The position numbers were made by a program, and so were the translations under genes. Source: an uncultured Desulfosarcina sp. (lineage in GTDB: Bacteria > Desulfobacterota > Desulfobacteria > Desulfobacterales > Desulfosarcinaceae). Taken from it: a DNA stretch of 64,000 nt. Below are positions 21,871-50,853 of the stretch, piece by piece (positions within the stretch are counted from its first letter, which is position 1; the number at the start of each line of letters is the position of its first letter). Location of the stretch: positions 704,001 through 768,000 of the forward strand of contig CAXXWQ010000004.1 in assembly GCA_963674945.2 (NCBI GenBank), in the 5' to 3' direction. The notes under the pieces were generated by a model. The model saw only the letters and a program-made list of their open reading frames with translations, was not told the DNA's origin and searched no databases.

Positions 21871-23094
21871 TTAGAAATACATTTTTACACCCATTACATT
21901 GCCAAGCAACGTCTTTTGGTATGTGTTGCCAACCGGATCGGTCTCTTTCTCTGAATGGTAATAATAGGTGTTGAAAACGGCCTCGATCTTTTCCGTAATC
22001 TTATAACCAAAGCCTATGGCAAAATTATAATAGCTCAAATCCGTACCGCCCGAAGCAACCGTTTTATCTTTGGATTCTACTGCGTGGGTGGTATAGGAGA
22101 TGCCCCCACTAGTGTACAACTTCGGGGAAAGCTCATATTTTATACCGAGTCCGAGCGTCCAACTGTCTACCCAATTTGTCGGGGACGCACTCTTTTGTGG
22201 ACCATTAAACATTTCAACTTCAGACTCCTTGAATTCCACATCACCCCACCATCGGTACGCATATTCAGCGGTGATGAGCATCTTCGGTGTTACTTGATAA
22301 CTGACACCGGTTAACAAATACCAGGGTATATCGACGGTGTAGGTAGCCGATCCGTCGTCTGCAAGTACAAAACCGGGAGGAAGCGGTCCATCAACCACGG
22401 TCATTTTCACATCACCTTCATATTTCAATGACGTCGGGCTTTTTGCGGTAACGCCGATTCGTACATCGGTGACAGGCTTGTACATGATGCCGAACACGGC
22501 CCTATACCCGGTATTTATCGCTAAGTATTCTTGTTCCATGTCGATGATGACACCACGATCTTCGTATCTCGAACCCTTTACTTCCAGCATGCCCAGAGCC
22601 GTCTCTCCGGTGAACCCAAGGTACAGTTTCGGCGATACCTCGTAGGCGATGCTTAGACCCAAGGAAAAACCGCCCCCCGCAGTAGTAAAATCTCCAAGAC
22701 CCGGAACATTATCCAAAACTGCCGACCCAGCGCCGTATGACGCGTAGAAGCCCGCTCCGTATGCCAGCTTTCCCCTTCTCGTGGCACCAAACATGCTTGG
22801 CGCACCAAACGGATCCGTGCTGCTGTAATCCTGCCCGGTGGTTGCATCGTGATAGGTGTAGTCCGGAAGGATTCCGGTATAAAATTCAAAGTTGCAGTCG
22901 ATCACACCTTCGGGAATCTGGACGAGGCCTGCGGGATTCCAGAAAACCGCCGATGAGTCATCGGCGACACCGGTATAAATATTTGAAAGCCCCGCCGCCC
23001 GAAGCCCCACGTAATCGCTGTTCCAGCCTACTGCATAAACATTTCCGACCGATAGAAAAAATACAAACAGCACACTCACGATTCTACTTCTCAT
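21871..23094 (-). CDS. OmpP1/FadL/TodX-family outer-membrane channel
   Basis: Signal peptide, ADDSSAVFWNPAGL hatch motif, beta-strand pattern and terminal Phe. Confidence 0.88.
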   Translation of the reverse strand: MRSRIVSVLFVFFLSVGNVYAVGWNSDYVGLRAAGLSNIYTGVADDSSAVFWNPAGLVQIPEGVIDCNFEFYTGILPDYTYHDATTGQDYSSTDPFGAPSMFGATRRGKLAYGAGFYASYGAGSAVLDNVPGLGDFTTAGGGFSLGLSIAYEVSPKLYLGFTGETALGMLEVKGSRYEDRGVIIDMEQEYLAINTGYRAVFGIMYKPVTDVRIGVTAKSPTSLKYEGDVKMTVVDGPLPPGFVLADDGSATYTVDIPWYLLTGVSYQVTPKMLITAEYAYRWWGDVEFKESEVEMFNGPQKSASPTNWVDSWTLGLGIKYELSPKLYTSGGISYTTHAVESKDKTVASGGTDLSYYNFAIGFGYKITEKIEAVFNTYYYHSEKETDPVGNTYQKTLLGNVMGVKMYF

Positions 23095-23115
23095 TTAGAA
23101 CTCTCCTTCATGAAC

Positions 23116-23237
23116 CAATTTGGCGACCTCGTAAAAAGTCGAAGTTCTCATCCTCTGGCTCTGTGATCGATTGAAGATACATCTTGGCAAATTGCAGAAA
23201 TAGCATATAAACGACTTTTTACGAGTTCACCAAATTG
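23116..23237. repeat. 122-bp element with 26-bp terminal inverted repeats (MITE/REP-like)
   Basis: CAATTTGGCGACCTCGTAAAAAGTCG ... CGACTTTTTACGAGTTCACCAAATTG, 24/26 complementary. Confidence 0.7.
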
Positions 23238-23479: not shown

Positions 23480-23576
23480 TTTTATTGATAAACATATCTT
23501 CACATTACATTCAACGGCAACAAAGGTAAAGTTAATTTCATTTTTTATTTACATATATTGCCTCATCTGATAGATT
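23480..23576 (+). promoter_or_regulatory. GRE1 promoter: 21-bp conserved box plus TTTACA-N17-TAGATT
   Basis: The box TTTTATTGATAAACATATCTT (23480-23500) and the -35/-10 (23548-23576) recur with identical spacing upstream of GRE2. Confidence 0.7.
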
Positions 23577-23655
23577 TATAGAGCCCATTTTATTAATCTC
23601 GATTTATTAATCGATGTTTACATTTGACAACCCGTCAAACAAAGGGAGGACGAAA

Positions 23656-26211
23656 ATGACAGCCACGGCAAAACAAGTTAAAACAAAGGAACCTCCGGTC
23701 ATAAAGGGTAAAATCAACATCGAGGCGATCAACAAAACAAACCCGTTACCCACCAGAATCAAGGCGATGCGGGATCGGTACCTGAAGGAAATTTCCAAGG
23801 TGTCCAGCGACAGGCCGTGGTACATGTATCAGTCATATCTGAAGACCGAGGGCGAGCATCCCGCAGTTCGCAGGGCCAAGGCGCTGGCCAATGTCTGGGA
23901 GAACAAGGCCATTGCGGTTCATGATCTCGATCTGATCATGGGCAACTTTACCGATGCCATCCGCGGTGCCCATCCGCCGCTGGAGTATTATCCTGAACAG
24001 ATGCGGCGTTTGCTGGAAGCAAACGAGGCGAACTGGACCAACTCCCAGCAGTGTCAGGCGGATCTCTCCAAAGAAGACTTCGAAAAAATCATGGAGGCCG
24101 CCAAGTACTGGGAGAACCACTGGCCCACCCCGGAGATGCGAGAGCGCTGGGACAAACTGATCGCCGTGATCGATCCGAATGACTATCAGAGAGACTTGCA
24201 GTACACCGGGGTCAACTGGGCCCCCGAGTACCTCCCAAGAGAGAAGCGAGTCAAAAAGACGCCTCTGGTACCGCGCCCGCAGGCCACCGGCGCAGATTTC
24301 GAGAAGGCACTGAAGGTCGGTTACAAGACCTTGATCAAAAATGCCAACGATCATATCGACAGGATACAGGGAATCGCCAGAGGACGGGATTTCACCGATG
24401 ATGAAAAAGAAAAGCTGGCGGTCCTGGAGGCGATGGTCATTGCTCTGAAGGCGGTGATTCGCTATGCGAATCGCTATGCTGCCATGGCGGAGGAGAAGGC
24501 AGCAACAGAGAAGGATCCGCAGAGAAAGGCGGAACTTCTGAAGGCGGCGGAGGCTTGCCGTTGGGTGCCGGAAAATCCCCCCAGGACCTTCTTTGAAGCA
24601 GTGCACTCCTTCTGGTTCACGGCAATGGGTGTTTATATGGACAAGTGCCAGCCCAACGTATTTGCAGGTCGATTCGACCAGTACATGTATCCGTACTATG
24701 AGGCCGACATCAACGAAGGCCGCATGACCCGCCAGGAGGCCGTGGAGCTTTTCGGTTGCCTGATCATGAAGCTATGTGCACTCGAACCCTATATGACCCC
24801 GGAGCACCGGGCCGTCTCCCAGGGCACCAATTATGAAAACATCACCATCGGTGGCTGCGATATCCATGGCAAAGATGCCTCCAATGAGCTGTCTTGCATC
24901 GTTCTGCATGTAGCCGCAGAAACCAAGACGCATCAGCCCTATATTTCGCTGCGCTACGATCGTCAGATAGCTCCCGAGTTAATGGAGAAGGCACTCGAGT
25001 GCAACCGTAAGCACGGGGCAGGGATTCCCGCCTTTTTCGGCGATCGTGTGAACATCGAGTATATGCTGAGCCGGGGCCATACCCTGGAACATGCCCGGGA
25101 TCATGCCATTGCCGGATGTGTGAACTGCGTGTACCCGAAGTGCTTCGCCTGGATACGCATGCCCATCACCACAAACAACGAAGCCAAGATGCTGGAGGTA
25201 TTCCTTCACAGAGGCCTCGATCCCCGCACGGGTATCCAGATCGGAAATGACTATGGCGATCCGGGGGACATGACGTTTGATGAACTGGTGGAAAATTATA
25301 AAAAAGAGGTTGCCTACTTCATCAATTGGCAGATTACCCAGTCAGATGCCTGGGACAGGGCCGTGAATTTCACTACGCACGATGCATGGTTCTTTCCCTT
25401 CGTATCTGCCAATATGGAAGGTTGCATCGAAAGCGGCAAGGATATCAGCAGACTGGGTGGCGTGACGGCCATAGACGATGCCAATTACGGCCTCGACCGT
25501 TTCATCCAGGATGCGGCGGATTCGCTCATGGCCATTAAAAAGCTTGTCTATGAGCAGAAAAAGTACACCATGGACGACTTTCTTAAGGCGATGGATGCCA
25601 ACTGGGAAGGATACGATCAAATGCGCGCCGACGCCTTGACGCAACCGAAATACGGAAATGATGACGACGAGGCGGATGCATTGGTAGCCGACCTCTGGTC
25701 CTTTATCACCGATGTCAATATGGCGAGGAAGGATATGTTCGGCAGGCATTACACCGTCTACCGTCAGGGTTCATCCGTGGCAGCGTCCGCCGGCAAATGG
25801 ACAGGGGCACTTCCCAACGGCCGCAAGGCAGGCGAATGGCTCTCGGACGCTTCGCTGTCCCCGGTGCAGCAGGCGGATCAGAAGGGGCCCACGGCCGTCA
25901 TCAACTCGGTGACCAAGCTCGATTTCAGGCATATGGATGGCACGCTCTTGAACATGAAGCTCTGCCCGAGCCTGGTGGACAAACCCGGTGGAATGTTGAA
26001 ATTCAGACAGCTGGTGGAAACATACTTCGACAAGGGCGGCCAGGAAATTCAGTTCAATATCCTGGATAAGGATACGCTGCTGGATGCCCAGAAAAAGCCC
26101 GAGAATTATCGCGATCTGGTGGTACGGGTTGCCGGTTACAGTGCATTCTGGGTGGATCTGGAAACCCAGGTGCAAGATGAGATCATCAGACGAACCGAGC
26201 ACGCAATGTAA
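23656..26211 (+). CDS. Glycyl radical enzyme GRE1 (851 aa), unassigned class
   Basis: SD GGGAGG. GRFDQYMYPYY, Cys loop AIAGCVNCVYP, KYGNDD, QFNI and Gly loop LVVRVAGYSAFW. Confidence 0.95.
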   Translation: MTATAKQVKTKEPPVIKGKINIEAINKTNPLPTRIKAMRDRYLKEISKVSSDRPWYMYQSYLKTEGEHPAVRRAKALANVWENKAIAVHDLDLIMGNFTDAIRGAHPPLEYYPEQMRRLLEANEANWTNSQQCQADLSKEDFEKIMEAAKYWENHWPTPEMRERWDKLIAVIDPNDYQRDLQYTGVNWAPEYLPREKRVKKTPLVPRPQATGADFEKALKVGYKTLIKNANDHIDRIQGIARGRDFTDDEKEKLAVLEAMVIALKAVIRYANRYAAMAEEKAATEKDPQRKAELLKAAEACRWVPENPPRTFFEAVHSFWFTAMGVYMDKCQPNVFAGRFDQYMYPYYEADINEGRMTRQEAVELFGCLIMKLCALEPYMTPEHRAVSQGTNYENITIGGCDIHGKDASNELSCIVLHVAAETKTHQPYISLRYDRQIAPELMEKALECNRKHGAGIPAFFGDRVNIEYMLSRGHTLEHARDHAIAGCVNCVYPKCFAWIRMPITTNNEAKMLEVFLHRGLDPRTGIQIGNDYGDPGDMTFDELVENYKKEVAYFINWQITQSDAWDRAVNFTTHDAWFFPFVSANMEGCIESGKDISRLGGVTAIDDANYGLDRFIQDAADSLMAIKKLVYEQKKYTMDDFLKAMDANWEGYDQMRADALTQPKYGNDDDEADALVADLWSFITDVNMARKDMFGRHYTVYRQGSSVAASAGKWTGALPNGRKAGEWLSDASLSPVQQADQKGPTAVINSVTKLDFRHMDGTLLNMKLCPSLVDKPGGMLKFRQLVETYFDKGGQEIQFNILDKDTLLDAQKKPENYRDLVVRVAGYSAFWVDLETQVQDEIIRRTEHAM

Positions 26212-26267
26212 AAAGGTATATCAGTGTTACCGGTGACCTTCACAATAACCGATCCGTTATCGTCTCT

Positions 26268-26302
26268 GCGGGCCGCCGCAATGTCTTTTGGGTGCGGCCC
26301 GC
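26268..26302 (+). other. GC-rich intercistronic stem-loop after GRE1
   Basis: GCGGGCCGC...GCGGCCCGC with no U tract. Conserved after GRE2. Confidence 0.6.
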
Positions 26303-26397
26303 CATTGTTAAGGCAACGACAACATCAAACAGAAGAAGAACGAGTAACAAGGAGAAAAAACGATTGTTGCGAATAAAAATATAAAAGGAGAAATGCG

Positions 26398-27060
26398 TTG
26401 AAAGTAATGGCATTTAACGGCAGTCCACGCATGAAAGGATGGAATACGGTCACACTCTTGGAAAAGGCTTTGGAGGGAGCTGCGTCCACAGGTGCAAAGA
26501 CTGAACTTGTTCAGCTTTATGATCTGAATTTTTCTGGCTGTATCAGCTGCTTTTCATGCAAAAAAAGCGACCGGAAGGAGGACGGGGTTTGTGCAGTAAA
26601 GGACGATCTGACGCCCGTACTCCAACGGATCAAAGATGCCGATGCGCTGATTATCGGCACACCTTTGTATTACCTCACCGAATCAGCCGGAACGCGAGCG
26701 TTTTTTGAACGTCTCTGTTTCCCTTATTTACAATATACAAAAGACATGCGGTCTCTTTTTCCAAAACGCATCAATACAGCCTTGATTTACACAATGAACA
26801 TGAGTGAAGAAATGATCGAGGTGGTTGGGCTTAACCAGCGGCTATCCATGAACCAGACCCTCCTTTCCATGCATTTCGGAACATGCGAGTTGCTTCTCTC
26901 CACAGATACGCTTCAATTCAGCGACTATGACAAATACGAATCGGAAATGTTTGACAAAGAGGCCAAAACCAGACGCCATGAGGAAGTCTTCCCAGATGAC
27001 TGCCAGCGTGCTTTTGAATTGGGTGTCCGCATGGTCACCAATAAGGGTGGGGAGTCGTAG
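26398..27060 (+). CDS. Iron-sulfur flavoprotein / NADPH-dependent FMN reductase (flavodoxin-like fold)
   Basis: TTG start with SD AAGGAG. NGSPR..WNT, CISCFSC...C.VKDD and GTPLY motifs. Confidence 0.88.
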   Translation: MKVMAFNGSPRMKGWNTVTLLEKALEGAASTGAKTELVQLYDLNFSGCISCFSCKKSDRKEDGVCAVKDDLTPVLQRIKDADALIIGTPLYYLTESAGTRAFFERLCFPYLQYTKDMRSLFPKRINTALIYTMNMSEEMIEVVGLNQRLSMNQTLLSMHFGTCELLLSTDTLQFSDYDKYESEMFDKEAKTRRHEEVFPDDCQRAFELGVRMVTNKGGES

Positions 27061-27098
27061 GCCATGGCACCTCGACCAGTTAACCAATATGTGGTGTA

Positions 27099-28034
27099 AT
27101 GATGAGCAATGAAGAAGATAGTGGCAATTTGAGGGGACGAATTTTCAACATCCAGCGCTACAGCACCGAGGACGGACCCGGCATCCGCTCGACCGTCTTT
27201 TTGAAGGGATGCCCGCTGACCTGTCTCTGGTGCGCCAACCCGGAATCGCAAAAGAGTTATCCCCAAGTCGGACACCGCGACGCGCTTTGCAAACAGTGCG
27301 GCAATTGTATGGCGGCCTGCACAGAAAAGGCGATTTCCTTTAACCCCGATGGAAAGGGAATCGTCATCGATCGAAATCTTTGCAATAACTGCGGCGAATG
27401 CACCAGAGTCTGCACCGAAGGCGCGTTGACCATGCATGGCAAGGATTATACACTGGAAGAGGTCTTCGAGGAGGTGAAACGGGATGAAATGTTCTACCGC
27501 AATACCGGCGGGGGGGTCACCTGTTCCGGCGGAGAGCCTCTGGCGCAACCCGCTTTCGTGGCGGCGCTTTTCGAAAGATGCCGGCAGGTTGGAATCCCCA
27601 CGGCACTGGATACGACCGGTCACGCATCCCGTTCGGCACTGGAGCAGGTCCTGGCCTATACGGATTTGTTTTTATTCGATTTGAAGTGCATGGACAGCGC
27701 CGACAGCCTTGCGTCCGTAGGGCAGTCCAACGAGCTCATGCTTGAAAATGCCGAACATGTGATGCAAAGCGGTGTTCCCATCATCATTCGGGTCCCGCTG
27801 ATCCCCGGAATCACGGAAAAAACGGAAAATCTTCAGAAAATCGCCGCGTTCGTCAAGCGGGTGAATCCGGAAACGCCCATCAACGTGCTGCCCTATCATC
27901 GTCTTGGCGTAAGCAAGTTCCGCATGATGGACATGACGTATAAACTGGACGACCTGGGGCCGATTCCACAAGAACGTCTGGATCAGATTGCCGAGATATT
28001 CGACTCCCATGGTCTGGTGTGCGAAATCGTATAG
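27099..28034 (+). CDS. Glycyl-radical activating enzyme AE1 (radical SAM with 2x[4Fe-4S] ferredoxin insert)
   Basis: DGPGIRSTVFLKGCPLTCLWCANPES, CKQCGNCMAAC, CNNCGECTRVC, SGGEPL and LPYH motifs. Confidence 0.95.
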   Translation: MMSNEEDSGNLRGRIFNIQRYSTEDGPGIRSTVFLKGCPLTCLWCANPESQKSYPQVGHRDALCKQCGNCMAACTEKAISFNPDGKGIVIDRNLCNNCGECTRVCTEGALTMHGKDYTLEEVFEEVKRDEMFYRNTGGGVTCSGGEPLAQPAFVAALFERCRQVGIPTALDTTGHASRSALEQVLAYTDLFLFDLKCMDSADSLASVGQSNELMLENAEHVMQSGVPIIIRVPLIPGITEKTENLQKIAAFVKRVNPETPINVLPYHRLGVSKFRMMDMTYKLDDLGPIPQERLDQIAEIFDSHGLVCEIV

Positions 28035-28079
28035 TATGGTAAAGGATTAGAAAAACACAGAAAAAACAGGAGACAGCTG

Positions 28080-28772
28080 ATGCCCGAGAGAGTATTTACA
28101 GATCAGGAACTGAAGGAGATGGGAACCTTGACCCTCGACCTCCTGAAACAGGCCATTGAATCCGGAGACAAGGAAAAAGCCAAGGCCCTGGCAGACCGAA
28201 TGTATCAGGAGAGCCTCCAGATGCATGATATGTATGTGGACTGGGCGGCCGGATTCATGGATTGGATCTACCGAAACTGCGGGGACGACGCCCTTCTCGA
28301 AGCGGAAAAGAGGGTTTTCGGCGATTTTATGGGCCTTGCGAGCCTGCCCGATATGCGTGATATCGACTTTAAACTCAGAGCGTTGGGAACGGTTAATTCG
28401 CTCAGAGGCCACCAACAACCCTTAAGGATCGAAGAAGATGACGAGAAGCTGAGCATTACCATGGTGCCCTGCGGCAGCGGCGAACGATTATACCAGAAAG
28501 GTCGTTTCGGGCCGCCGTGCAACCTGTCTCTGATTAACAAGGCGCAGCCCTTGACCGGCGGCAAGACGGACTATCCGGTGTATTGCACCCATGAGCCGGT
28601 TCTCGAACTGATCGCCATTGAGAACCTTGGCTACCCCATCACCGTCTGTTTTCCTTGTGAGAACGTGGCCAGAGAAGAGGGAGGCTGCACCTTCTGCGTC
28701 TATAAGGACTTCAAGAATATTCCCGAAAAAGTGTGGACCAGAGTGGGGAAAGAAAAGCCCAAAGATCTCTAA
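28080..28772 (+). CDS. Cys-rich hypothetical protein (230 aa)
   Basis: SD CAGGAG. PCGSG, YCTHE, CFPC and GCTFCVYK segments. Follows AE1 in the same direction. Confidence 0.8.
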   Translation: MPERVFTDQELKEMGTLTLDLLKQAIESGDKEKAKALADRMYQESLQMHDMYVDWAAGFMDWIYRNCGDDALLEAEKRVFGDFMGLASLPDMRDIDFKLRALGTVNSLRGHQQPLRIEEDDEKLSITMVPCGSGERLYQKGRFGPPCNLSLINKAQPLTGGKTDYPVYCTHEPVLELIAIENLGYPITVCFPCENVAREEGGCTFCVYKDFKNIPEKVWTRVGKEKPKDL

Positions 28773-28984
28773 GACTCTTAAAAAGCCGAGCATCAGTACC
28801 CGGGAAATTGTATTGTTGGCAAAAATGCCCTTGGAAACGAAATCGTTTCCATAAAAGTATCGGCTGCGCCGATGCTCGGCCTCCTTTAAAAAAATTCGCA
28901 AGGCGTCATCGAATTGTTCTGTTTGCAGAAAAACGAATCCCGGAAGTTGCCTATGGATGAACAGTTTTCTTAGAAGGGAAAAAA

Positions 28985-29197
28985 ATGTCGCATATTGAAA
29001 AAAGCATCACGGAAGACATGATTCAAAGAGTGCAAAAAGCGCGAAATGTGAGTCGCGGGCAAGCAAAATGGATCATCGAATCACATGTGGAAACCCCGGA
29101 TGGGGTGCAATGTTGCAGCATACCGTACCAAGTCCAGAATCACGAATCAGTATCACTCGATGAAATCGTCGACCAAATTTGCAAAGAAGCAAAATAA
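28985..29197 (+). CDS. Small hypothetical protein (70 aa)
   Basis: Purine-rich SD-like stretch. Natural-looking composition with a QCCS motif. Fills an intergenic gap. Confidence 0.5.
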   Translation: MSHIEKSITEDMIQRVQKARNVSRGQAKWIIESHVETPDGVQCCSIPYQVQNHESVSLDEIVDQICKEAK

Positions 29198-29258
29198 AAA
29201 TCATCTCTGTGAAAATCGAATCGCAGCTCTTTTGTTTGTGGAAGAGAGACGGTAACGA

Positions 29259-30245
29259 TCAATAAATTTCGCTGGGTGAGTTACCGTCCCACGGACTCCT
29301 GATAACTTCGAGGTAAATCATCGTCTCAGTCTTGACGATACCCGGTATATTTCCAAGACCATCCCTAAGAAAATCCGAAAGCGCCAGAATTTCTGAAAAG
29401 TGTACACCGAGAAGAATGTCATAGTGCCCCAGGATTATGGTAACGAAATGCACGGAATTGAATGACGCCAGTTTATTCGCTACATCGTCAACCGCACCGG
29501 GAACGACCTTGATGCCGATCATTGCCGTCATTTCATACCCGAGGGATCCGGGTTCGGTAACGGCGATGATCTCTGTAATTCCTTCGGAAAGAAGCCGCTG
29601 TAATCTCTTTGCGGCGCTTACCCTGCTGACACCCAGTTTTTTTGCCAGTTCTACCACCGGCATCCTGCCGTCCTTCTGAAGTTCTTCAATAATTGTCATA
29701 TCCAGCTCATCCGGAACGTATCTCTTCATTGCTGATTTCTTTTGATGCGCTGGTTTGTATTTTTGCGGGGTGGCCGCGCTTATGGGATATGACAATACGT
29801 TCTTAATCGTCTCCATGTGAATCAAGGTTTCATTGCCGGTGATTCCGGGAATTTTTCCGATTTCATGCCGAAGAAAGGCGGAGAGTGCGTCAAGGCCTCT
29901 AAAAAAAGCCCAGGTCACGATATCATAAGGGCCGGTGGCAAGAGCCACCGAACGGAAATTGGGAAATGATGCAAGTTTCTCAGCGACTTTATGGATATCG
30001 TGCTCTGAATTCACGGTAAAACCAACCGTCACGCTGAGGTTTTGCTTTGAAAGCGGCAGGGCCGGCACGGCGACGACTTTAATGATGCGCTCGTCGATGA
30101 TTCTTTTCAGTCTGGCGCTGGCCGCACGCTGACTGATGCCGGTCTTGGTTGCCAGATGAACAACAGGCATTCGGCCGTCTCTGGCCAGTTCCTGAATCAT
30201 CGTCAGATCGATCTTATCAAGCTCAAAATTTGCGTGTTGCCGCAT
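29259..30245 (-). CDS. Lrp/AsnC-family regulator with two tandem HTH-RAM units (Lrp1)
   Basis: Two LD..D..II.EL..DGR HTH units, each followed by a G.YD RAM domain. SD CAGGAG before MRQH. Confidence 0.9.
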   Translation of the reverse strand: MRQHANFELDKIDLTMIQELARDGRMPVVHLATKTGISQRAASARLKRIIDERIIKVVAVPALPLSKQNLSVTVGFTVNSEHDIHKVAEKLASFPNFRSVALATGPYDIVTWAFFRGLDALSAFLRHEIGKIPGITGNETLIHMETIKNVLSYPISAATPQKYKPAHQKKSAMKRYVPDELDMTIIEELQKDGRMPVVELAKKLGVSRVSAAKRLQRLLSEGITEIIAVTEPGSLGYEMTAMIGIKVVPGAVDDVANKLASFNSVHFVTIILGHYDILLGVHFSEILALSDFLRDGLGNIPGIVKTETMIYLEVIRSPWDGNSPSEIY

Positions 30246-30611
30246 AGTCAGTCTCCTGTGCGATCCTGCTGAATCGGAACCAGCCATTTTCACGATTGAT
30301 GCTGCCCTGACCATCCTTTCACAACAGTTCTTGAACGGATGCCGAGATAAATTATAATATCAGTATATTAAAATAATTCAAATTTTTTCCTCCCAATCGA
30401 TTCAGAATTAATTGACAAATATGTTTATCTAATATACCTATTGGCATATTAAGTAAACACTCTACAAGGATATAATGAACATTTAGGATCATTAACCATA
30501 ATAAAATACAAATTTTATCAGTAACGACAGCGCCAAAAAAAAGATTTGCCGGATATATCAATGATTCAAAGATGATTTCTTACCATCATTACCAGCAAAG
30601 GAGTATACACA

Positions 30612-31376: not shown

Positions 31377-31420
31377 TTTTACTCGACGTACTACCTTATT
31401 CCCCAACCAAGAGGAGAAAA

Positions 31421-33112: not shown

Positions 33113-33122
33113 TGAGAACACC

Positions 33123-37847: not shown

Positions 37848-37944
37848 TTTTATTGATAAACATATCTTATTTTACCTAAATAGGCATTTATTGTAAATTT
37901 TTTGTTCCTTTTTGCTTTACATTTCTTGCTTACTGCATTAGATT
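37848..37944 (+). promoter_or_regulatory. GRE2 promoter: same 21-bp box plus TTTACA-N17-TAGATT
   Basis: Box at 37848-37868, -35 at 37916-37921, -10 at 37939-37944. Confidence 0.7.
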
Positions 37945-42490: not shown

Positions 42491-42764
42491 TGCGAATCAC
42501 TCCTTTCATATTTAATGACTGCGGTTCATCACCAGGTCATAGCAGATAACCAGAGCATAGACGATATTGCTCTGTTTTTTTGGCCATGTAAAACTTTTAT
42601 CTTGTATCAGGAAGAAATCTCATGAACCAGCGATGAGTGTAGTAATCAAAGATACTTGATTTCTCTAAAGATGGAGACAGTTTGTTTTACAATTTTTTTT
42701 GCAAAGAGAGGGAAGTGAATTATTTGTGGGACCAGCAGCAGCACACGGACGGCAGTATGGCCCA

Positions 42765-43277
42765 TTATTTGATTACAGCGTTGGTATAGATAAAATCAAT
42801 TGCCTTCCTTACCAGCAAATCATTTTTCAGCGCCTCCAGATCCTCACCGAGAAAATTCTTTACCATCTCAACAGGAATGTGCTGCCGAACAGATATGGCC
42901 TTCGCCTCTTCCTCCAGATCTTCTTTGGTTATTTTAAAGTTCTCTGCTTCTATAATTCCCTTGAGTACCATTCTTGTCTTCACCAGCTTGAATGCCTCTT
43001 CTCTGAACTCTTCCATACGATCGGTCATGTCATCCGGCAGGCAGTCGAAATACCCGCTGGACGCCATGCTCTCATATTTCATCTTATGTTTCAGATCCAT
43101 TACTATCATTGTGACTTCATTGTCGATCAGATCCTGGGGAACCTCGATATTGTTGGCTTCCAGGACCTGATCGATGATCGCTTCCTTCATCTGCATCTCT
43201 GCGTTCTCAGCGGACGAAGCGTTTTTAACGCGCGCCACTTCAACGCCCTTGTAGTTTTTCACTGCTGTATTCGACAT
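42765..43277 (-). CDS. Stand-alone trigger-factor C-terminal-domain protein
   Basis: IEVPQDLIDNE, REEAFKLVKTRMVL..IIEAENF.IT.EDL and LLVRKAIDFI. No ribosome-binding or FKBP domain. SD AGGGAG before MSNT. Confidence 0.8.
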   Translation of the reverse strand: MSNTAVKNYKGVEVARVKNASSAENAEMQMKEAIIDQVLEANNIEVPQDLIDNEVTMIVMDLKHKMKYESMASSGYFDCLPDDMTDRMEEFREEAFKLVKTRMVLKGIIEAENFKITKEDLEEEAKAISVRQHIPVEMVKNFLGEDLEALKNDLLVRKAIDFIYTNAVIK

Positions 43278-43433
43278 CCGTTCTTTTCTCCCTACAGTTA
43301 ACGTCCTTTCTGTCTGAATCACACCAGTGAAACATCGCAGCCATAATTCAAAAGGTGGATGTGATATGCGATGAAAAAGATAGTTATAATATCCTGTTAC
43401 AGGTAACTTTTTTGATTATCCGGGAAACATTAA

Positions 43434-44321
43434 TCAGAATTTCTCGATCGTATTGAGAAACTTGTCAAGCTCCTTCTCTTCCATATGAAAGCCATGCTTA
43501 TCCTCGGGATATCCGCCGGTACGGACATCGTTGGCCCATGCACCATATGCGCCAGCGGCCCACTTAAAAAAATCACCATAGACCTTCGCGTGAGAGGCCA
43601 GATGGGGCATCATGTTGAAGGTGTCGAAGTCAACCATCTCGCAGCCATCGGCTGCACCGCCTGCGGCGATAGAAATCACGGGTACGCGCAGCTTCTTTGC
43701 GATAGCGTTGGTGACTTCGATGGGAGTCAGCTCGATGGTCATAGCCATCATGCCGTTCTCCTGATACTCATACGCCATACGGAAGACCTTCATGGCCTCC
43801 TCAGCTGTCTGGCCCAAACGCTTGTAGCCGCCATGTCTGCTTGTCTGCCAGCCGGACAGCGCGCCCACGTGACCGAAGACCACCAGATGGTTATCCGCCA
43901 TATACTTCAGGGTTTCGTTATTGACACCCATTGGGAGCAGGGAGTCGGCACCTTCGGCCATGTACATGGAGCCATACTCCAAAGCTTTTTCCTTGGAGGA
44001 GAAGGTCGGTGTCTGCATATAGAAGTTGATGTGGATAATCTTCGCTGCGTTGCGGACGGTACGGATCCACCAGGGTGCGTTTGCGATGGACATTGCGGTG
44101 TTCTCGGCGGGAACAGTCAGACGGCAGATATCGCAACCGGCCATTTCAGCGGCCATGGTAAAAAACTGGTCTCTGTTGGCGGGGCACATCTGAACGATGG
44201 GAGTACCCTCGTCCTTGAGTTTCTGCAAATAAGCAATGGACTTTCGACCTTTCTGCATCTTGGACGCCTTAACATTTTTGTCCTCCGATTTGACCTCAAC
44301 TTCTTTCTTTTCTTCTGTCAT
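43434..44321 (-). CDS. PanB-fold protein B with non-canonical active site
   Basis: Paralogue of 41621-42490 (VFGHVG, TIE, VPVISIAAGGAADG, DVRTGGYP). SD AAGGAG. Confidence 0.8.
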   Translation of the reverse strand: MTEEKKEVEVKSEDKNVKASKMQKGRKSIAYLQKLKDEGTPIVQMCPANRDQFFTMAAEMAGCDICRLTVPAENTAMSIANAPWWIRTVRNAAKIIHINFYMQTPTFSSKEKALEYGSMYMAEGADSLLPMGVNNETLKYMADNHLVVFGHVGALSGWQTSRHGGYKRLGQTAEEAMKVFRMAYEYQENGMMAMTIELTPIEVTNAIAKKLRVPVISIAAGGAADGCEMVDFDTFNMMPHLASHAKVYGDFFKWAAGAYGAWANDVRTGGYPEDKHGFHMEEKELDKFLNTIEKF

Positions 44322-44400
44322 TATTATTTCTCCTTCCATATTTTATGGTTTGATTTCATTTTCATTACAACTGGAAAAGCATTTTAATAATCGATAAAAT

Positions 44401-45213
44401 CTACCCCACCAAGGATTGGCGCAGGCCGGTTTCGACATCGCTCCAATACCCGAAGTCCACAGTAAGGTTCTGACCGCTTACGAACCGTGCCAGATTACTA
44501 TTAAGAAAAACCAGGGGCTCGGCAACTTCTTCGGGTGTGGCAAACCGGTCACACGGCGCCCGGAAATAATCCCAAAGAAATTCTTTGCTGTTTGACTCCT
44601 CGAAATGCTTATACATGGGTGTCATCGTGGTTATGGGGCTGAGGCAGTTAATACGGATTTCCCTCTTCGCCAACTGACTGGCGTGCTGGTAGGTATAATA
44701 AATGAGACATTGTTTCGAGAATAAGTAGCCCAGATTTCGATCTTCATTGGCCAGAAGCCATCCTTTGGCCTCGTCAAAATTGCGCGTCGAGACCATCTCC
44801 TTGACCGCTTCCAGGTTGCTTCGCCACCCCATCCCTGCGAGGGAAGCGACATTGGCAACGGCACTTCCCTTACCCATTTTCGGTAACAGGTTTTCAGTAA
44901 GGTGCCGATGACCTGCGAAATTGACCAGAGTGGTGTCGAAATTGGAAAAAGGTGGACCGGGAAGTCCGGCACAGTTGAACAACGAATGAACATCATCCGG
45001 AATTTGTGCAATTGCTGCATCAATGGACGCCTTGTCTTTAAGGTCAACCTGAATGAACTTCGACCCTGGAACTGAAATTCCTCTTGTTCCCAAAGAGTAG
45101 ACTTCAGCACCCAAATCGACGATAATTTGTGCTGCAGCTTTTCCAATACCGGAGGAAGCCCCTGTGAAAATTACACGTCTGCCTTTATATTCCAGCAAAT
45201 CCTTATTTTTCAT
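44401..45213 (-). CDS. SDR, 3alpha-hydroxysteroid / coniferyl-alcohol dehydrogenase-like
   Basis: TGASSGIG, NCAGLP, VNF.G, ASLAG and YLFSK motifs. Confidence 0.85.
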   Translation of the reverse strand: MKNKDLLEYKGRRVIFTGASSGIGKAAAQIIVDLGAEVYSLGTRGISVPGSKFIQVDLKDKASIDAAIAQIPDDVHSLFNCAGLPGPPFSNFDTTLVNFAGHRHLTENLLPKMGKGSAVANVASLAGMGWRSNLEAVKEMVSTRNFDEAKGWLLANEDRNLGYLFSKQCLIYYTYQHASQLAKREIRINCLSPITTMTPMYKHFEESNSKEFLWDYFRAPCDRFATPEEVAEPLVFLNSNLARFVSGQNLTVDFGYWSDVETGLRQSLVG

Positions 45214-45219
45214 AATACC

Positions 45220-45771
45220 TTATTCCCCTGTTTCGGCATTGATTATGCCAAGTTTTGCAGAATAGGTGTTGGGAAACGACTGCGTATGTAATGCTATCTG
45301 GGCAAGCGCCTCCTTATGCAGTTTGTTAAGACAATGTTGGAGAACGTCTCGCTCTTCATGCGTCAAGCAGGTCATAATTTCGCCACTGGCCTCATCAAGC
45401 GCAATGATTTGATCGAGTAATGCTTCTCCCTTATTTGTGAGAGAAACTGTGATTACATTCCTGTTGCTGTCACTTTTATTTCTCTTCACCAGGCCGTCAT
45501 TCTCCATTCTTTTGAGAAGCTGGGCTGTCGCCTGACGATCACGATCGAGTATCTGTGACATTTCGGTAATGGTTGCCGGCCGATCCATCGCCTTAATTCC
45601 CCATAATGCCCACGCCCTTGAAAAATGGATTCCCGCCGGTTCCGATATCACCTTCTTTTTAACATTCAACAGGGCAACATAGGTCACACCGAATAGTCTC
45701 CACAGCTGTCGTGCTTCAAGGAGTGAAGCAATATCTTTTTCATTTTTCATACGGATATGCACCCCATCCAT
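45220..45771 (-). CDS. MarR-family transcriptional regulator
   Basis: TITEMSQILDRDRQATAQLLKRMENDGLV...VSLTNKGE winged helix. Start may be 45750. Confidence 0.85.
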   Translation of the reverse strand: MDGVHIRMKNEKDIASLLEARQLWRLFGVTYVALLNVKKKVISEPAGIHFSRAWALWGIKAMDRPATITEMSQILDRDRQATAQLLKRMENDGLVKRNKSDSNRNVITVSLTNKGEALLDQIIALDEASGEIMTCLTHEERDVLQHCLNKLHKEALAQIALHTQSFPNTYSAKLGIINAETGE

Positions 45772-46065: not shown

Positions 46066-46806
46066 ATGAAATTCAAAGGCAAAAACGCAGTAATTGTAGG
46101 CGCTGCACAGAATTCAATCGGACGAGCCGTCGCATTGGAACTGGCAAAAGCAGGCGTCGACATTTGCATCTGGGACATCAATACCGAGGGGGCCGAAAAA
46201 ACCGCCAAGGAGATACAAGATGCCGGTGGCAAGGCTGCAGTGAAAAAAGCCAATGCAATGGATTATGGCAATATAAAGAGCGTTACCGAGGAAACCATCA
46301 AAGATATGGGTTCCATCGACTATTTGGTCGATACCGTCGGCGGCGGCGTATTCAAGGGGTTGCCGGATTACGATTTTGATTTCTTCAAGCAGCAAGTGGA
46401 ATTCAACGGTTACACCATGTTCAATTGCGCCCACAACATCATGGGACATTTTTCGGAACGCAATACAGGCAAGATGCTCTTTTTCATTTCGACGACGGGC
46501 GGCCAGGCAGGGCTTGCAGGATATGGGGCCGGCAAAGCCGTTATGAAGAGCATCATGGAAACCATGGTCGCCGAACTGAATGGGAAATTGATCAACATCA
46601 ATTGCCTTCTGCCAGGAGTCTGCCCCACCGAACTCACACTGGGCGCTTTCAGAGCCATGGGAATGGATGAGCAGGCGGTGCATGACACGATGGGGCCGAG
46701 AAATCCACGCGGCTTGAATTCTCCGGAAGAAGTCGCAAAAGTTGCAGCGTTCCTCCTTGCAGATGAATCCGATCGGATCACCGGCCATGTTGTCACAATG
46801 GACTAA
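46066..46806 (+). CDS. SDR-family oxidoreductase (divergent)
   Basis: SD GGGAGG. GAAQNSIG, YGAGK, NCLLPG and PEEVAKVAAFL motifs. Confidence 0.88.
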   Translation: MKFKGKNAVIVGAAQNSIGRAVALELAKAGVDICIWDINTEGAEKTAKEIQDAGGKAAVKKANAMDYGNIKSVTEETIKDMGSIDYLVDTVGGGVFKGLPDYDFDFFKQQVEFNGYTMFNCAHNIMGHFSERNTGKMLFFISTTGGQAGLAGYGAGKAVMKSIMETMVAELNGKLININCLLPGVCPTELTLGAFRAMGMDEQAVHDTMGPRNPRGLNSPEEVAKVAAFLLADESDRITGHVVTMD

Positions 46807-46920: not shown

Positions 46921-47021
46921 ATGAATGAGACATCCTTTCCGTACGCCTGGCAGATAAAACAGCGCACGGAGGAAACGGCATTGTTTTTGGATTACCATGT
47001 TATGGCAAGAACCGAGAAACA

Positions 47022-48008
47022 TCAAAGATAATCACTCGGAGAGCTAGCGTGCCAAGGGCTTCTGATAATATCGAGGTAAATCATATTCTCGGTCTTGGCA
47101 ATACCCGGTATCTTTCCGAGACCGTTCCTGATGAAGCCTGAAAGTGCCGGGATTTCCGAAAAGTGTACACCGAGAAGCATGTCATAGTGTCCCAATGTGA
47201 TGGCAACGAAATGCACGGAATTGAATGACGCCAGCTTGTATGCCACCTCATCGACCATACCGGGGAACACCTTGATGCCGATCATTGCCGTCATCTCATA
47301 CCCGAGGGACCCGGGTTCGGTAACGGCGATCACCTCTGTAAAACCTTCGGAAAGAAGCCGTTGCAGTCTCTTTGCGGCGCTCACCCTGCTGACACCCAGT
47401 TTTTTCGCCAGCTCTACCACCGGAATTCTGCCATCTTTCTGAAGCTCTTCAATAATCGACATGTCCAGCTTATCCGGAGCGTATCTCTTCTTTGCCGCTG
47501 TCTTTTGATGTACCGGTTCGTATTTGTACGGACTGGCCTCGCTAATGGGATACGACAACACATTTTTAACTGTCTCCATGTGAATCAGAGTTTCATTGCC
47601 CGTTATTCCGGAGATTTTGCCGATTTCATACCGGAGAAAAGTGGAGAGCGCTTCGAGGCTTTTGAAGAAGGCCCAGGTCACGATATCATAAGGACCGGTG
47701 GCAAGGGCCACCGAACGAAAATTCGGATATGATGCGAGTTTTTCCGTGACGCTAAGGATATCATGCCCCGATTTTACGGTAAACCCGACTGTAACACGGA
47801 TATTTTTCTTGGAAAATGGCAGGGCCGGCACTGCGACGACTTTAATGATGCGCTCGTCAATGATTCTTTTCAGTCTGGCGCTGGCCGCGCGCTGACTGAT
47901 GCCGGTCTTGTTTGCCAGGTGAATAATAGGAATTCTGCCGTCTCTTGCCAGTTCCTGAATCATCATCAAATCGATCTTATCAAGCTCACGTTTTGCGCGT
48001 TGCCGCAT
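47022..48008 (-). CDS. Tandem-domain Lrp/AsnC regulator (Lrp2), paralogue of Lrp1
   Basis: Highly similar to 29259-30245. Divergent from GRE3. Confidence 0.9.
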   Translation of the reverse strand: MRQRAKRELDKIDLMMIQELARDGRIPIIHLANKTGISQRAASARLKRIIDERIIKVVAVPALPFSKKNIRVTVGFTVKSGHDILSVTEKLASYPNFRSVALATGPYDIVTWAFFKSLEALSTFLRYEIGKISGITGNETLIHMETVKNVLSYPISEASPYKYEPVHQKTAAKKRYAPDKLDMSIIEELQKDGRIPVVELAKKLGVSRVSAAKRLQRLLSEGFTEVIAVTEPGSLGYEMTAMIGIKVFPGMVDEVAYKLASFNSVHFVAITLGHYDMLLGVHFSEIPALSGFIRNGLGKIPGIAKTENMIYLDIIRSPWHASSPSDYL

Positions 48009-48333
48009 AGTGCCATCTCCAACGAATTGTAAAAATAAGAGAAAATGATTTTCCAAAACCAAGCCTTGTCACCCATGAAAAGGCCTTTGTACATAAAATT
48101 GTAGCATGTTTCATCTATGGGAAAAACACAAGAATCATGAAAGTCTAAAAATGATACAATTGATACGAATCAATTAATATTTAGCATCAAAAAATAAACT
48201 TACATATCAAAATATCAAAAGTAAGGAGTTTTTTATTGACAGTTTGATACCCTGTTGGTAGGAAGTGGTAAGATAGACGAATTCCATTCGAATTGTTGGC
48301 ACTGTTCAACAAACACAAAATAGGAGGAGTAAA

Positions 48334-50853
48334 ATGGCTGCGTCAAAAAGCAAAGAACCAAAGGTCGATCCACGCGTGATCCAACTGGAGGCGGTCTACA
48401 AGACCAATGGCTTCACCGACCGGATCAAGATGCTCAAGGACAGGGTAAGGGAAGACGGCGTTCACATCGCCGGCGAAAGGGCCAGATACTGGCTTGAGTC
48501 TTACAAGGAGACCGAGGGCGAGCATCCGGCGATCCGGAAGGCCAAGGCGGAAGCCAATCTCATGGCCAAGATGCCCATCGTCATCCGGGAGGGCGAGCTG
48601 ATCGTGGGCAAGCCCACGCCGCACAATCGCGGCGCCTATCCGGGTCACACCTTCGGACCGGAAATGATATTGATGATCCTGGCCCACCGGGACCAGATGG
48701 CCAGCGCCGGCAGCGAGGAACAGGACGCCGAGCTCACCGACGAAACCATCGAGGATATCCGCGCCGCGGCCACCTACTGGGATGCCATGGGGCTGGGCAA
48801 GAAACGCCATGCGGCGGATATGGCCTTTGGCGGCGAAAAGAGAAATCAGATGGGCCAGGCCAAGCTCAACATGGGCGGCGTCCTGCAGATGGGTGAACAC
48901 ACCCCGCTGGTCGTGGGCTGCGACTTCGAGAAGTACCTGAGAATCGGCATCAACGGCATCATCGCCGAAATCGAAGACCGGATTGCCGAGATCAAACGCA
49001 AAGGGGACAAGCTCACGCTGGAGGATACCCACAAAATCAAAGTCCTGGAATCGTTCATCATCGGCCAGAAGGGCTTTTCGGTATTTATCAAGCGCCACGC
49101 CGAAGCGGCGCGCGAGCTGGCCAAGAAGGAAAAGAACGCCACCAGAAAGAAGGAACTGAAAGAGATCGGCGATGTCTGCGAGTGGGTGTCCGAAAATCCG
49201 CCGCGCACCTTCAGAGAAGCGCTGCAGGCCTACTGGTTCATACCGGTGGTGCACGACATGGAAAAGGCCATCTCCAACCATTACGCCGGCCGTTTCGATC
49301 AGTATCTGTTCCCGTTTTACATGAAAGACATCAACGAAGGCCGCATGACCCGCCAGGAAGCGGCGGAACTGATGGGGAACATCTTCGTATTCTGGGATTC
49401 GCTGGAGCCTTTCCTCTTCACGGGTCTTGCGGGCAGGCGGGACCATCAGGCGGTGGCCCAGGCCAACTACATCGTCAACGTCACCTTGGGCGGAATCGAC
49501 CGGAGGGGCAGAGACAACTCCAATGAGTGGGGCTGTATGGTACTGCACGTGGCCGGACAGCTCAGAACGCACCAGCCGCACATCTCCATTCGTTATCATC
49601 ACGCCATGAAACCCGAGTTTCTGGATGCGGCCATCGAGTGCAACAAGAATCACGGCGCGGGCATCCCTGCATGGTTCAACGACCGCAACAACATGGAGTA
49701 CCTGATGAGCCGCGGCGTTCCCCATGAAGAGGCGCGGGACTGGTCCATGGCCGGCTGCGTGAATACCGGCATCTGCAAGACCTTCAACTGGGGAATGGGA
49801 CATGGGCCCGGATTCGTGCATCACGGCAAACTGCTCCAGATGGCGCTCAATCGCGGCGTGGATCCGGATACCGGATTCAAGCTGGGAACGGACACCGGGG
49901 ATCCGCGGGAATTTTCGACCTTCGATGAGGTGCTGGAAGCCTACAAGACGCAGGTGAAGCACCATTACGCCTTCCATATGAATCTGGGCTTAAACGGCGC
50001 AAAGCATTGCGACGGCACCGGCGAAGCCTATATGCCGATCGCCTCGGCCTGGCTGGAGGGATGTATCGAAAGCGGCACCGACTGCAACCATCATGGGTGC
50101 ACGACGGCTTTTCAGCTGGAGGGCGGCTCCTTCGTGGACCGTGCCTTCCCGGACACCACCGACTCGTTGATCGCCATCAAGCATGCGGTGTTCGAAGACA
50201 AGATCTGCACCATGGACGAACTTCTCGCGGCACTCAAGGCGGATTTCGAGGGGTATGAAGAGCTGCGCAAGAAGCTGATGGATTATCCCAAGTACGGCAA
50301 CGACCTGGAAGAACCCGACGAGCTGATGGCGCATATCTGGTCCTGGACCCGGGACGAGGCGCTCTCCTATCGGGATGAACTGGGCCGTAAGCCCAGACTC
50401 TTCCGTCAGGGCGCCGCGTGGGCCCAGTGGGTTGCCGCAGAAACCGGAGCGCTGCCCAACGGGAAGAAGAAGGGGGAACCCCTGGCCGACGGGTCGTTGT
50501 CACCCGTTCGCGGCTGCGACAAGAACGGTCCCACGGCCGTGATGAATTCATCGGCGAAATGTGACATGATGGGCATGGAGAGCTCACTGATGAACATGAA
50601 GTTTTCCGCCGGCGTTCTTGGAAGCAATGAGGGCAAGCAGAAGTTTGCCGCCTTGCTTAGCACTTTTTTTGCCAAGGGCGGATCCCAGTTGCAGCTGAAT
50701 ATTTTGAACAGAAAAACCCTTCTGGATGCCAAAGCCCATCCGGAGAATTACCAGGACCTGGTGGTACGGGTTGCGGGATACAGTGCTTACTGGATCGAGC
50801 TGACGCCGGAAGTACGGGACGAAATCATCACCCGGACGGAACACGCCATGTAG
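48334..50853 (+). CDS. Glycyl radical enzyme GRE3 (839 aa), distant paralogue, no adjacent activase
   Basis: SD AGGAGGAG. GRFDQYLFPFY, Cys loop SMAGCVNTGIC and Gly loop LVVRVAGYSAYW. Confidence 0.95.
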   Translation: MAASKSKEPKVDPRVIQLEAVYKTNGFTDRIKMLKDRVREDGVHIAGERARYWLESYKETEGEHPAIRKAKAEANLMAKMPIVIREGELIVGKPTPHNRGAYPGHTFGPEMILMILAHRDQMASAGSEEQDAELTDETIEDIRAAATYWDAMGLGKKRHAADMAFGGEKRNQMGQAKLNMGGVLQMGEHTPLVVGCDFEKYLRIGINGIIAEIEDRIAEIKRKGDKLTLEDTHKIKVLESFIIGQKGFSVFIKRHAEAARELAKKEKNATRKKELKEIGDVCEWVSENPPRTFREALQAYWFIPVVHDMEKAISNHYAGRFDQYLFPFYMKDINEGRMTRQEAAELMGNIFVFWDSLEPFLFTGLAGRRDHQAVAQANYIVNVTLGGIDRRGRDNSNEWGCMVLHVAGQLRTHQPHISIRYHHAMKPEFLDAAIECNKNHGAGIPAWFNDRNNMEYLMSRGVPHEEARDWSMAGCVNTGICKTFNWGMGHGPGFVHHGKLLQMALNRGVDPDTGFKLGTDTGDPREFSTFDEVLEAYKTQVKHHYAFHMNLGLNGAKHCDGTGEAYMPIASAWLEGCIESGTDCNHHGCTTAFQLEGGSFVDRAFPDTTDSLIAIKHAVFEDKICTMDELLAALKADFEGYEELRKKLMDYPKYGNDLEEPDELMAHIWSWTRDEALSYRDELGRKPRLFRQGAAWAQWVAAETGALPNGKKKGEPLADGSLSPVRGCDKNGPTAVMNSSAKCDMMGMESSLMNMKFSAGVLGSNEGKQKFAALLSTFFAKGGSQLQLNILNRKTLLDAKAHPENYQDLVVRVAGYSAYWIELTPEVRDEIITRTEHAM

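Follow-up and report, generated by a model that had tools for sequence, protein, structure and literature searches.

The question that this locus raises is whether a 29-kb region with genes for three glycyl radical enzymes (GREs) encodes a single pathway of anaerobic catabolism, and what reaction these enzymes catalyse. The region lies at 21871-50853 of a window of 64,000 nucleotides from an uncultured Desulfosarcina sp. (GenBank assembly GCA_963674945.2, contig CAXXWQ010000004.1, positions 704,001 to 768,000), and we refer to its enzymes as GRE1, GRE2 and GRE3. A first-pass annotation had proposed one new radical pathway across the region, and all of the genes that it listed are present there as stop-free open reading frames (ORFs; Table 1). 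We find that the three GREs belong to a distinct subfamily that is real and apparently undescribed, and that the 29 kb is likely a patchwork of separately copied gene blocks and not one pathway. The host genome (7.08 Mb in 4 contigs, completeness 98.7%, contamination 5.7%) has dsrA and acetyl-CoA synthase genes above their cut-offs, and for that reason the host is likely, judged by gene content, to be a sulfate reducer with the Wood-Ljungdahl pathway.

Membership of the GRE superfamily is clear, as the proteins have the C-terminal RVxG[FWY] loop, the Cys loop, domains PF02901 and PF01228 and a radical SAM activase, which is the fingerprint given in PMC13598205. Each of the three has GCVN as its Cys loop motif and RVAGYSA as its Gly loop motif, and is intact as had been claimed, but they are of two types: GRE1 and GRE2 (type A) are 87% identical and GRE3 (type B) is 42% identical to both. 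The three are below every curated NCBIfam cut-off. They reach at best 490-500 bits, where the broad PFL2/GD subfamily has its cut-off at 678; the scores for HypD, HpsG, HpfG, CutC, IAD and HPAD are 329-473 bits against cut-offs of 1000-1150, and for the PFL equivalog they are 80-100 of 994 bits, with the adjacent Cys-Cys missing. Matches in the PDB form a flat band, in which AAD (7E7L) is the best near-full-length match for GRE1 (395 bits), and the top matches of GRE3 and of a profile of the clade are CutC and glycerol dehydratase. Identity to proxies of the known classes is about 30-33%. The claim that these GREs lie outside the characterised classes thus stands.

In trees they fall in a clade of their own, with support of 0.99 when its 51 members were placed among 114 sequences, 0.98 in a larger tree of 319, and an SH-aLRT value of 100 for 14 representatives in a tree of 40. 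Around the clade there is a wider, unstudied group of GREs in which strand beta-8 carries an R-x-G motif, and the clade nests inside it. One protein, P0168, which we label PhdB-like by motifs only (CVQ, Trp 13 residues after the Cys, or C+13, and SAYSV), joins the wider group in the small tree (support 100) and is outside it in the large tree. Members of the wider group (proteins P0048-P0266) often have DR on beta-7 and have very diverse Cys loops without the CXE motif, some with Thr or Ala before the Cys. Unstudied GRE clades are indeed numerous and many have non-CXE Cys loops, which tempers the interest of finding one more.

At least about 50 relatives at 39% identity or more were among the 120 matches listed from 5.8 billion proteins (7,999 candidates scored), and a profile search of 1.84 billion representatives gave only two further high scorers. 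The relatives with names are from Chloroflexota, Binatia and Deltaproteobacteria, and a single Chloroflexota contig of 30,316 bp appears to hold both type A and type B, their accessions 15 apart, although co-location inferred in this way from equal contig sizes is weak evidence. Clade members were not found in 150 genomes of the order, with up to six candidates scored per genome, nor in 400 genomes of the phylum, with up to two. The ESM Atlas gave only generic GRE clusters, a scan of genomes other than the host for neighbourhoods gave one locus, which is not of the clade, and none of 31 hits in a metagenome scan with GRE3 was confirmed. A scan with the clade alignment gave at least one clade locus among 79 kept. 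A literature search, with subscription papers and supplements outside its coverage, found nothing on the clade.

Residue numbers of the active site follow the 865-aa ORF of GRE1 that begins at 23614, the likely start being 23656 to give 851 aa. Cys502 is present in all 51 clade sequences, and residue 504 (C+2) is Asn in 49, Asp in one and Glu in one, with CVN in each of the window GREs. According to PMC13450708, eliminases and isomerases retain the Glu of CXE, which binds the hydroxyl group of the substrate or takes a proton from it; CXE is missing from 50 of the 51. With CutC, GD, PD, HypD, IslA, HpsG, YbiW and PflD the clade shares the fold family, the Gly loop and activases with a ferredoxin insert, but it scores 350-475 bits against cut-offs of 1000-1109. 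The first-pass annotation had also noted that the usual partner genes were not recognisable, and a family scan of the 43 window proteins bears this out: no microcompartment shell, aldehyde dehydrogenase or P5C reductase family was found among them, so that the locus lacks the marks of a microcompartment GRE.

At the other aligned pocket positions Lys344 and Asn348 are present in all 50 sequences that cover them, His398 in 45, Arg515 in 37 and Gln718 in 49 of 51, and a conserved acid was not seen. Arg515 aligns with the Trp (C+13) and Gln718 with the Tyr of the PhdB-like sequence. In the five type-B paralogues of the host residue 515 is Met, His or Pro and residue 722 is Trp. Asp628-Arg629 and Arg717 are invariant in the 51. 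Arg717 appears to miss the register that faces the pocket by one residue, and it may form a structural pair with Asp628. Anchored co-variation of the two (45 sequences with both, 149 with neither, 13 discordant and 107 not scorable) is a hint of a structural pair only, the unanchored column count being muddied by gaps.

We suggest, as a tentative reading to which we give somewhat less than an even chance, that the region is a patchwork island around three apparently uncharacterised GREs with Asn for Glu, and that these likely cut a C-C bond of some bulky, oxygen-bearing compound of alicyclic or steroid-like type, by decarboxylation or by scission of a ring or side chain. The activase would install the glycyl radical, and the Cys502 thiyl radical would then abstract a hydrogen atom from the substrate. 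There would be no general base: the role of Asn504, Asn348, Gln718 and His398 would be limited to hydrogen bonds that keep the oxygen functions in place, and the radical would collapse by C-C beta-scission. This is as proposed for PhdB, for which PMC7079210 describes a CXQ motif, essential Trp495 (C+13) and Tyr691, and hydrogen abstraction without a base from the Cys loop. Before this step SDR3, a short-chain dehydrogenase/reductase (SDR), would convert an alcohol to a ketone and the KstD-like desaturase the ketone to a conjugated enone, which would stabilise the radical as the aromatic ring does for PhdB, IAD and HPAD. Type A, with Arg at C+13, would bind a carboxylate and type B, in GRE3 with Met, a neutral congener, and the activase at C3:981838 would serve GRE3 in trans (a C number denotes a contig of the host genome).

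The evidence for the substrate comes from genes that recur beside clade GREs. The DYY, SYVDFG and TYPGAG motifs of the KstD-like protein align with those of 7P18 (394 bits) and 4C3X, and include what we take to be the catalytic Tyr/Tyr/Tyr/Gly positions of KstD, although the protein is below the KstD equivalog cut-offs (660 of 789 and 585 of 788 bits). There are four KstD-like copies in the host and none was found in the 150 order genomes, the same pattern as for the clade GREs. The regions within 15 kb of a clade GRE make up 2.6% of the genome. Outside the window one of three KstD-like copies lies downstream of a type-B GRE at a distance of 107 bp, two of the three paralogues of SDR3 have a clade GRE at 76 bp and at 10.8 kb respectively, and 3/19 tandem-Lrp genes and 2/7 DUF1302 importers are within 15 kb of one; the OYE (0/2) and AbfD (0/1) paralogues outside the window are not near clade GREs. 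The expected co-occurrence of neighbours with the GREs therefore holds for KstD-like, SDR3 and Lrp genes, within this one genome only, and fails for PanB-like and AbfD genes. The stretches at C3:970-986 kb and C4:683-755 kb, both of which carry a type-B GRE, have blocks with corrinoid methyltransferase, GcvH and DUF1302/DUF1329 genes in common. Genes near clade GREs also include members of an amidohydrolase-2-like family, to which the steroid ring-A hydrolase belongs according to PMC11780191, although this is family resemblance only. The recurrence of KstD-like, SDR3 and hydrophobic importer genes fits a hydrophobic oxygenated substrate, as the first-pass annotation had supposed. The ring-cleaving hydrolase Oah was not found in the host genome, though the same search was positive in 2/5 relatives, nor was a benzoate-CoA ligase over the cut-off, and for this reason we favour the trimming of complex scaffolds over mineralisation of aromatic rings.

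Tandem (double) Lrp/AsnC regulators number 21 in the genome and are mostly beside catabolic genes.

Several points weigh against C-C cleavage in an alicyclic compound as the role of these enzymes. One clade member has Glu and another Asp at C+2, and the pocket positions depend on alignments at about 32% identity. CutC and the glycerol and diol dehydratases outscore AAD with the clade profile, and the PhdB-like proxy, labelled by motif only, is near the clade in one tree only. The linkage of KstD-like and SDR3 genes is among paralogues of one genome, which are not independent. The only clade locus outside the host that was read (L018, 7.4 kb) has genes for a CoA-transferase, an amidohydrolase, a LysR regulator and a SnoaL protein beside the GRE, with no KstD or SDR3 match found, and the GRE1-type gene at C3:341795 adjoins CoA-transferase, enoyl-CoA hydratase and AtuA genes instead. 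Finally the 15 methyltransferases of URO-D type in the genome, and the family label of SDR2, also point to methoxylated aromatics, though the methyltransferases could not be assigned as O-demethylases from PMC8630106.

A wider proposal, which we think rather unlikely but worth stating, is that the clade is a new catalytic class of GRE, made up of radical C-C lyases that work without a base and either trim non-aromatic, enone-activated steroid- or terpenoid-like molecules or open their rings, present here in eight variants and shared with sediment Chloroflexota and Binatia, as an oxygen-free counterpart of monooxygenase expansions. There is a likeness to SAR202, for which PMC5395668 proposes an expansion of catabolic paralogues and SDRs for recalcitrant alicyclic matter, but this is an analogy and not a test, and the SAR202 enzymes are oxygen-dependent flavin monooxygenases whereas those of our host are radical enzymes in a sulfate reducer.

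The strongest alternative, in our view unlikely but to be taken seriously, is that the clade is a further family of arylacetate-type decarboxylases, like PhdB or AAD, which act on phenolic acids after corrinoid-dependent O-demethylation of lignin-derived aromatics. The CxN of the clade resembles the CxQ of PhdB (PMC7079210), with an amide for Glu at C+2 in both, and in neither is a small subunit seen. AAD, which also lacks CXE, is the top match for residues 474-739 of GRE1, and the Arg at C+13 could anchor a carboxylate. Corrinoid methyltransferase blocks at C3:970-986 kb and in the island upstream of the window each have a type-B GRE, and SDR2 is just above the cut-off for a coniferyl-alcohol dehydrogenase subfamily. 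However, the identity to AAD-like and PhdB-like proxies, about 32%, is no better than to other GREs, and the positions of PhdB Trp495 and Tyr691 are Arg or Met and Gln in the clade, so that the PhdB signature of CXQ, Trp at C+13 and beta-8 Tyr is lacking, as judged against the motif-labelled proxy and not PhdB itself. AAD has a Cys loop of GCVLH and APHSI on beta-8, and AAD-like sequences are on separate branches in both trees. HPAD and IAD have the CXE Glu, and HPAD the small subunit HpdC, according to PMC7079210; the Glu is missing here and an HpdC-like subunit was not seen after GRE1. With Oah and benzoate-CoA ligase over the cut-off not found, a cresol-type product would be without an evident sink, and the adjacency of KstD-like genes is left unexplained.

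Cleavage of a cyclic or beta-aryl ether is quite improbable. Here abstraction of the hydrogen at a carbinol carbon would leave a radical of ketyl type; as this would expel a good leaving group, the Glu base would be unneeded, and loss of the Glu would be compatible with a leaving group of phenolate type. AbfD and the CoA ligase could take a 4-hydroxyacyl product, and the genome has many methyltransferases and hydrophobic importers. However, all solved GREs that cleave C-O bonds keep CXE (PMC13450708), AbfD is not linked to the GRE clade, and a positive sequence marker was not found.

We regard as highly improbable the original proposal of a single co-regulated pathway over 21871-50853, with the PanB-like pair responsible for aldol or C1 removal and with a funnel through 4-hydroxyacyl-CoA. 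The genes are physically clustered, a close relative appears to keep GRE2 and PanB-like 1 (PanB1) on one contig of 79,775 bp, and a PanB-like gene in the Bacillota genome G994 flanks an SDR that is 49% identical to the SDR beside another KstD-like paralogue of the host. The blocks nevertheless differ in origin. The PanB-like proteins are in fold family PF02548 and keep the positions of His136 and Glu181 of E. coli PanB, the ketopantoate hydroxymethyltransferase, but in both the GDS, DLPF and KxEG motifs, which we take to be the Mg-binding Asp/Asp/Glu motifs of PanB, are replaced; they score 107 and 78 bits against a cut-off of 272, and a canonical panB is elsewhere in the genome (C4:2237278). 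PanB-like 2 (PanB2) has counterparts in the Bacillota genomes G775, at 88.7% identity, and G994, at 95.7% (over 277 aa), and in these genomes the order SDR, trigger-factor C-domain, PanB has 87-91% DNA identity to the cassette. Four Bacillota genomes have a PanB-like gene (3/400 and 2/112, with G775 counted in both), and a clade GRE was not found in any of the four, which may be incomplete, the best GREs there scoring 562 bits (a CutC on another contig) and 416 bits when clade members score at least 1377. The other five clade GREs of the host also have no PanB-like neighbour found. Given this near-identity, with no clade GRE found in those Bacillota and no PanB-like gene found at the other five GREs, the PanB-like/trigger-factor cassette is a recent import and does not belong to the core partners.

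The alignment of AbfD with 1U8V (535 bits) is full-length and includes the Cys/His motifs for the Fe-S ligands, so that AbfD is of the 4-hydroxybutyryl-CoA dehydratase type. It is present at 76-82% identity in 19 of the 150 order genomes, in none of which was a clade GRE found, and hence the AbfD block is a general order-wide module not tied to the clade. Within 1.5-kb flanks an SDR1-like gene (at least 70%) is present in three of those 19 genomes and a CoA ligase gene likewise in three, while a KstD-like gene is present in none. PanB-like and AbfD genes can thus be struck as two false leads in the search for core partners, and each of the two blocks is likely a module of its own that serves the same scavenging lifestyle. 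Genes for GRE1/GRE2 with their activases, Lrp1/Lrp2, SDR3 and GRE3 are duplicates, and much of the region is copied from other parts of the genome, with 84% DNA identity for the Lrp pair, 92% identity of GRE3 and its upstream region to C3:982992-985708, and 83-86% identity of SDR3 to two other loci. Opposing strands and separate regulators also speak against one pathway. A 20-bp motif with only two genome-wide matches at up to 3 mismatches, upstream of GRE1 and of GRE2, is followed at equal spacing in both cases by a promoter-like site, and because of this shared arrangement GRE2 likely has its own predicted promoter and is not the tail of the SDR1-OYE operon. Overall promoter and terminator counts were not above those in shuffles (21 vs 19.2 and 28 vs 23.1).

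The PanB-like family has 576 matches, many of them from Clostridia and Moorella, and appears as a pseudo-enzyme family that travels with a trigger-factor C-terminal domain and SDRs across phyla, with cassettes also at L108:14675-17054 and L155:1227-5072. It is possibly a hydroxymethyl or retro-aldol enzyme for a substrate that is not a keto acid, with its own chaperone. The literature search gave no paper, within the coverage given above, that joins 'PanB-like' with 'glycyl radical'.

A role as radical C-C forming synthases of fumarate-addition type, without small subunits, is very doubtful indeed. The clade shares with BSS and MASS the lack of Glu at C+2 and the context of hydrophobic substrates, with hydrophobic importers adjoining, and the Arg near the end of the Cys loop recalls Arg435 of PFL (PMC13450708). 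It also recalls the carboxylate-binding Arg of BSS. Type B, however, lacks this Arg, and BSS and MASS are among the weakest PDB matches (242-298 bits). The AE1 activase scores 213 of 496 bits for BssD, and no Cys-rich small subunit like BssBC or HpdC was seen by eye among ORFs of at least 35 aa after GRE1 (26100-31500), in agreement with the first-pass annotation; the ORFs listed around GRE2 and GRE3 were those of at least 90 aa, so small ORFs were checked only after GRE1.

The genome has ten PFL-like loci, of which eight are clade GREs (three of type A and five of type B), one is an unrelated intact GRE and one has an internal stop. That the copies are redundant or decaying duplicates without distinct function is hardly credible and largely refuted, for although an insertion sequence (IS) with 27 other copies follows GRE3 and the activases AE1 and AE2 share 867 identical bp, all eight ORFs are stop-free, their pocket positions vary, and five paralogue pairs have dN/dS of 0.08-0.17 with dS up to 1.1, from which it follows that the copies are old enough and under purifying selection. 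There are four activases, of which AE1 and AE2 are beside type A, a third (43% identity) adjoins the 96% paralogue of GRE3 at C3:983062 and the fourth adjoins the unrelated GRE. As all eight clade GREs carry RVAGYSA, and in view of the section on specificity in the review PMC13450708, in-trans sharing of activases is plausible. The stretch 27134-28000 is identical to 40699-41565, whereas the DNA identity of GRE1 and GRE2 is 84%, and this points to either gene conversion or an effect of the assembly. The contigs of X1, possibly the source, match long pieces without differences, and among the pieces listed none bridges either activase copy; pieces from a mangrove metagenome are too short to show linkage.

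Another GRE (L008:9026-11497), with a GCSD loop, its own activase and a tandem Lrp, is below all cut-offs. At L009:8432-10843 (G000:C3:2604431-2606842) there is a GRE with PhdB-like motifs (CLQ, QAYSN) and one in-frame TGA, which is likely a pseudogene.

Whichever of these explanations is right, the substrate or chemistry is likely to be undescribed, because the clade lacks the eliminase Glu and matches no decarboxylase or synthase signature. Each new type of GRE active site has so far meant a new anaerobic reaction, and the clade is a good target for new radical chemistry: one near-complete genome offers eight selected paralogues with two pocket types, matching activases and recurrent redox partners as a tractable set for expression and assay. 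If our preferred reading of C-C cleavage in alicyclic compounds is true, it would give sulfate reducers and the Chloroflexota of sediments a route into alicyclic organic matter that needs neither oxygen nor the addition of fumarate.

Table 1. Features of the 29-kb region and the element next to it (window coordinates)
Feature	Coordinates	Strand	Remarks
FadL/TodX-family outer-membrane porin	21871-23094	-	PF03349; divergent from GRE1
20-bp motif TTTATTGATAAACATATCTT, 67 bp later TTTACA-17-TAGATT promoter-like site	23481-23576	+	candidate GRE1/GRE2 control region
GRE1, clade type A, 851 aa	23656-26211	+	GCVNC, Arg at C+13, RQG, RVAGYSA
Flavodoxin-like FMN reductase	26398-27060	+	PF03358/PF02525
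Activase AE1, radical SAM, two-cluster ferredoxin insert	27099-28034	+	TIGR02494 340 bits, cut-off 174
230-aa Cys/His-rich protein	28080-28772	+	without Pfam family
Tandem Lrp/AsnC regulator Lrp1	29259-30314	-	one of the 21 in the genome
SDR1, acyl-CoA ligase (start 31421), AbfD-type 4-hydroxybutyryl-CoA dehydratase	30612-34571	+	
KstD-like flavoprotein desaturase	34673-36340	+	Tyr/Gly motifs align with solved KstDs
Single-domain OYE/FMN oxidoreductase, C-terminal Cys cluster	36312-37493	+	PF00724; 2 paralogues at 63-67%
Second copy of 20-bp motif and promoter-like site	37849-37944	+	
GRE2, duplicate of GRE1	37992-40547	+	87% identity, dN/dS 0.11
Activase AE2	40667-41599	+	867 bp identical to AE1
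PanB-like 1, trigger-factor C-domain, PanB-like 2 cassette	41621-44339	-	PanB metal-binding motifs lost
Stand-alone trigger-factor C-terminal domain	42765-43322		between the PanB-like genes
SDR2 and MarR	44401-45771	-	SDR2 244 bits, cut-off 242, PRK12428 'coniferyl-alcohol dehydrogenase' subfamily
SDR3	46066-46806	+	86% paralogue 76 bp downstream of another type-B GRE
Tandem Lrp2	47022-48062	-	82% identical to Lrp1; divergent from GRE3
GRE3, clade type B	48334-50853	+	GCVNT, Met at C+13, RQGAAW; 96% identical to C3:983062
IS element, PF21804 transposase	51417-53883		directly 3' of GRE3; 27 further near-identical genome copies

The flavodoxin-like protein, the 230-aa protein, the stand-alone trigger-factor domain and the IS element were not in the first-pass annotation. 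The first of these is a candidate electron donor for the activase. The 230-aa protein has 203 homologues, in Chloroflexota, Binatota and others, and is possibly a metal hydrolase; its match to thiazoline-carboxylate-hydrolase-like clusters (scores 0.83-0.84) is a weak lead only. Pairing of a type-A GRE with this protein (P0002/P0437) on a 5,836-bp contig is a hint only, and a similar pairing (P0005/P0531) on 2,875 bp was rejected, as the contig is too small to hold both genes whole. The PDB matches for SDR2 include 3-alpha-HSD.

The IS element overlaps the 3' end of a GH123-like ORF (53832-56315). The 15 URO-D-type methyltransferases are accompanied in the genome by 13 corrinoid proteins, with some repeats 99.7% identical and with MtrH/MtgA-like, GcvH and FAD/CCG oxidoreductase genes alongside, in areas at G000:C4:600-704 kb, C3:255-275 kb and C3:970-973 kb. 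Upstream in the window, at 4890-12254, there is an importer cluster of DUF1302, DUF1329, BNR and MMPL genes, with 8 DUF1302 and 14 DUF1329 paralogues in the genome. Genes for a GcvH-like carrier, a LipS2-like radical SAM protein, a lipoate ligase with a DUF116 tail and a geranylgeranyl-reductase-like protein are at 122-3304 and again at L149:14447-19582; together they resemble a set for dedicated lipoate assembly, and all but the reductase are below cut-off. Lastly, a gene like that for 2,4-diaminopentanoate dehydrogenase, an amine dehydrogenase-like protein, lies at 20645-21703 behind a sigma-54 activator and converges on FadL, and one 57% paralogue of it adjoins a tandem Lrp gene.

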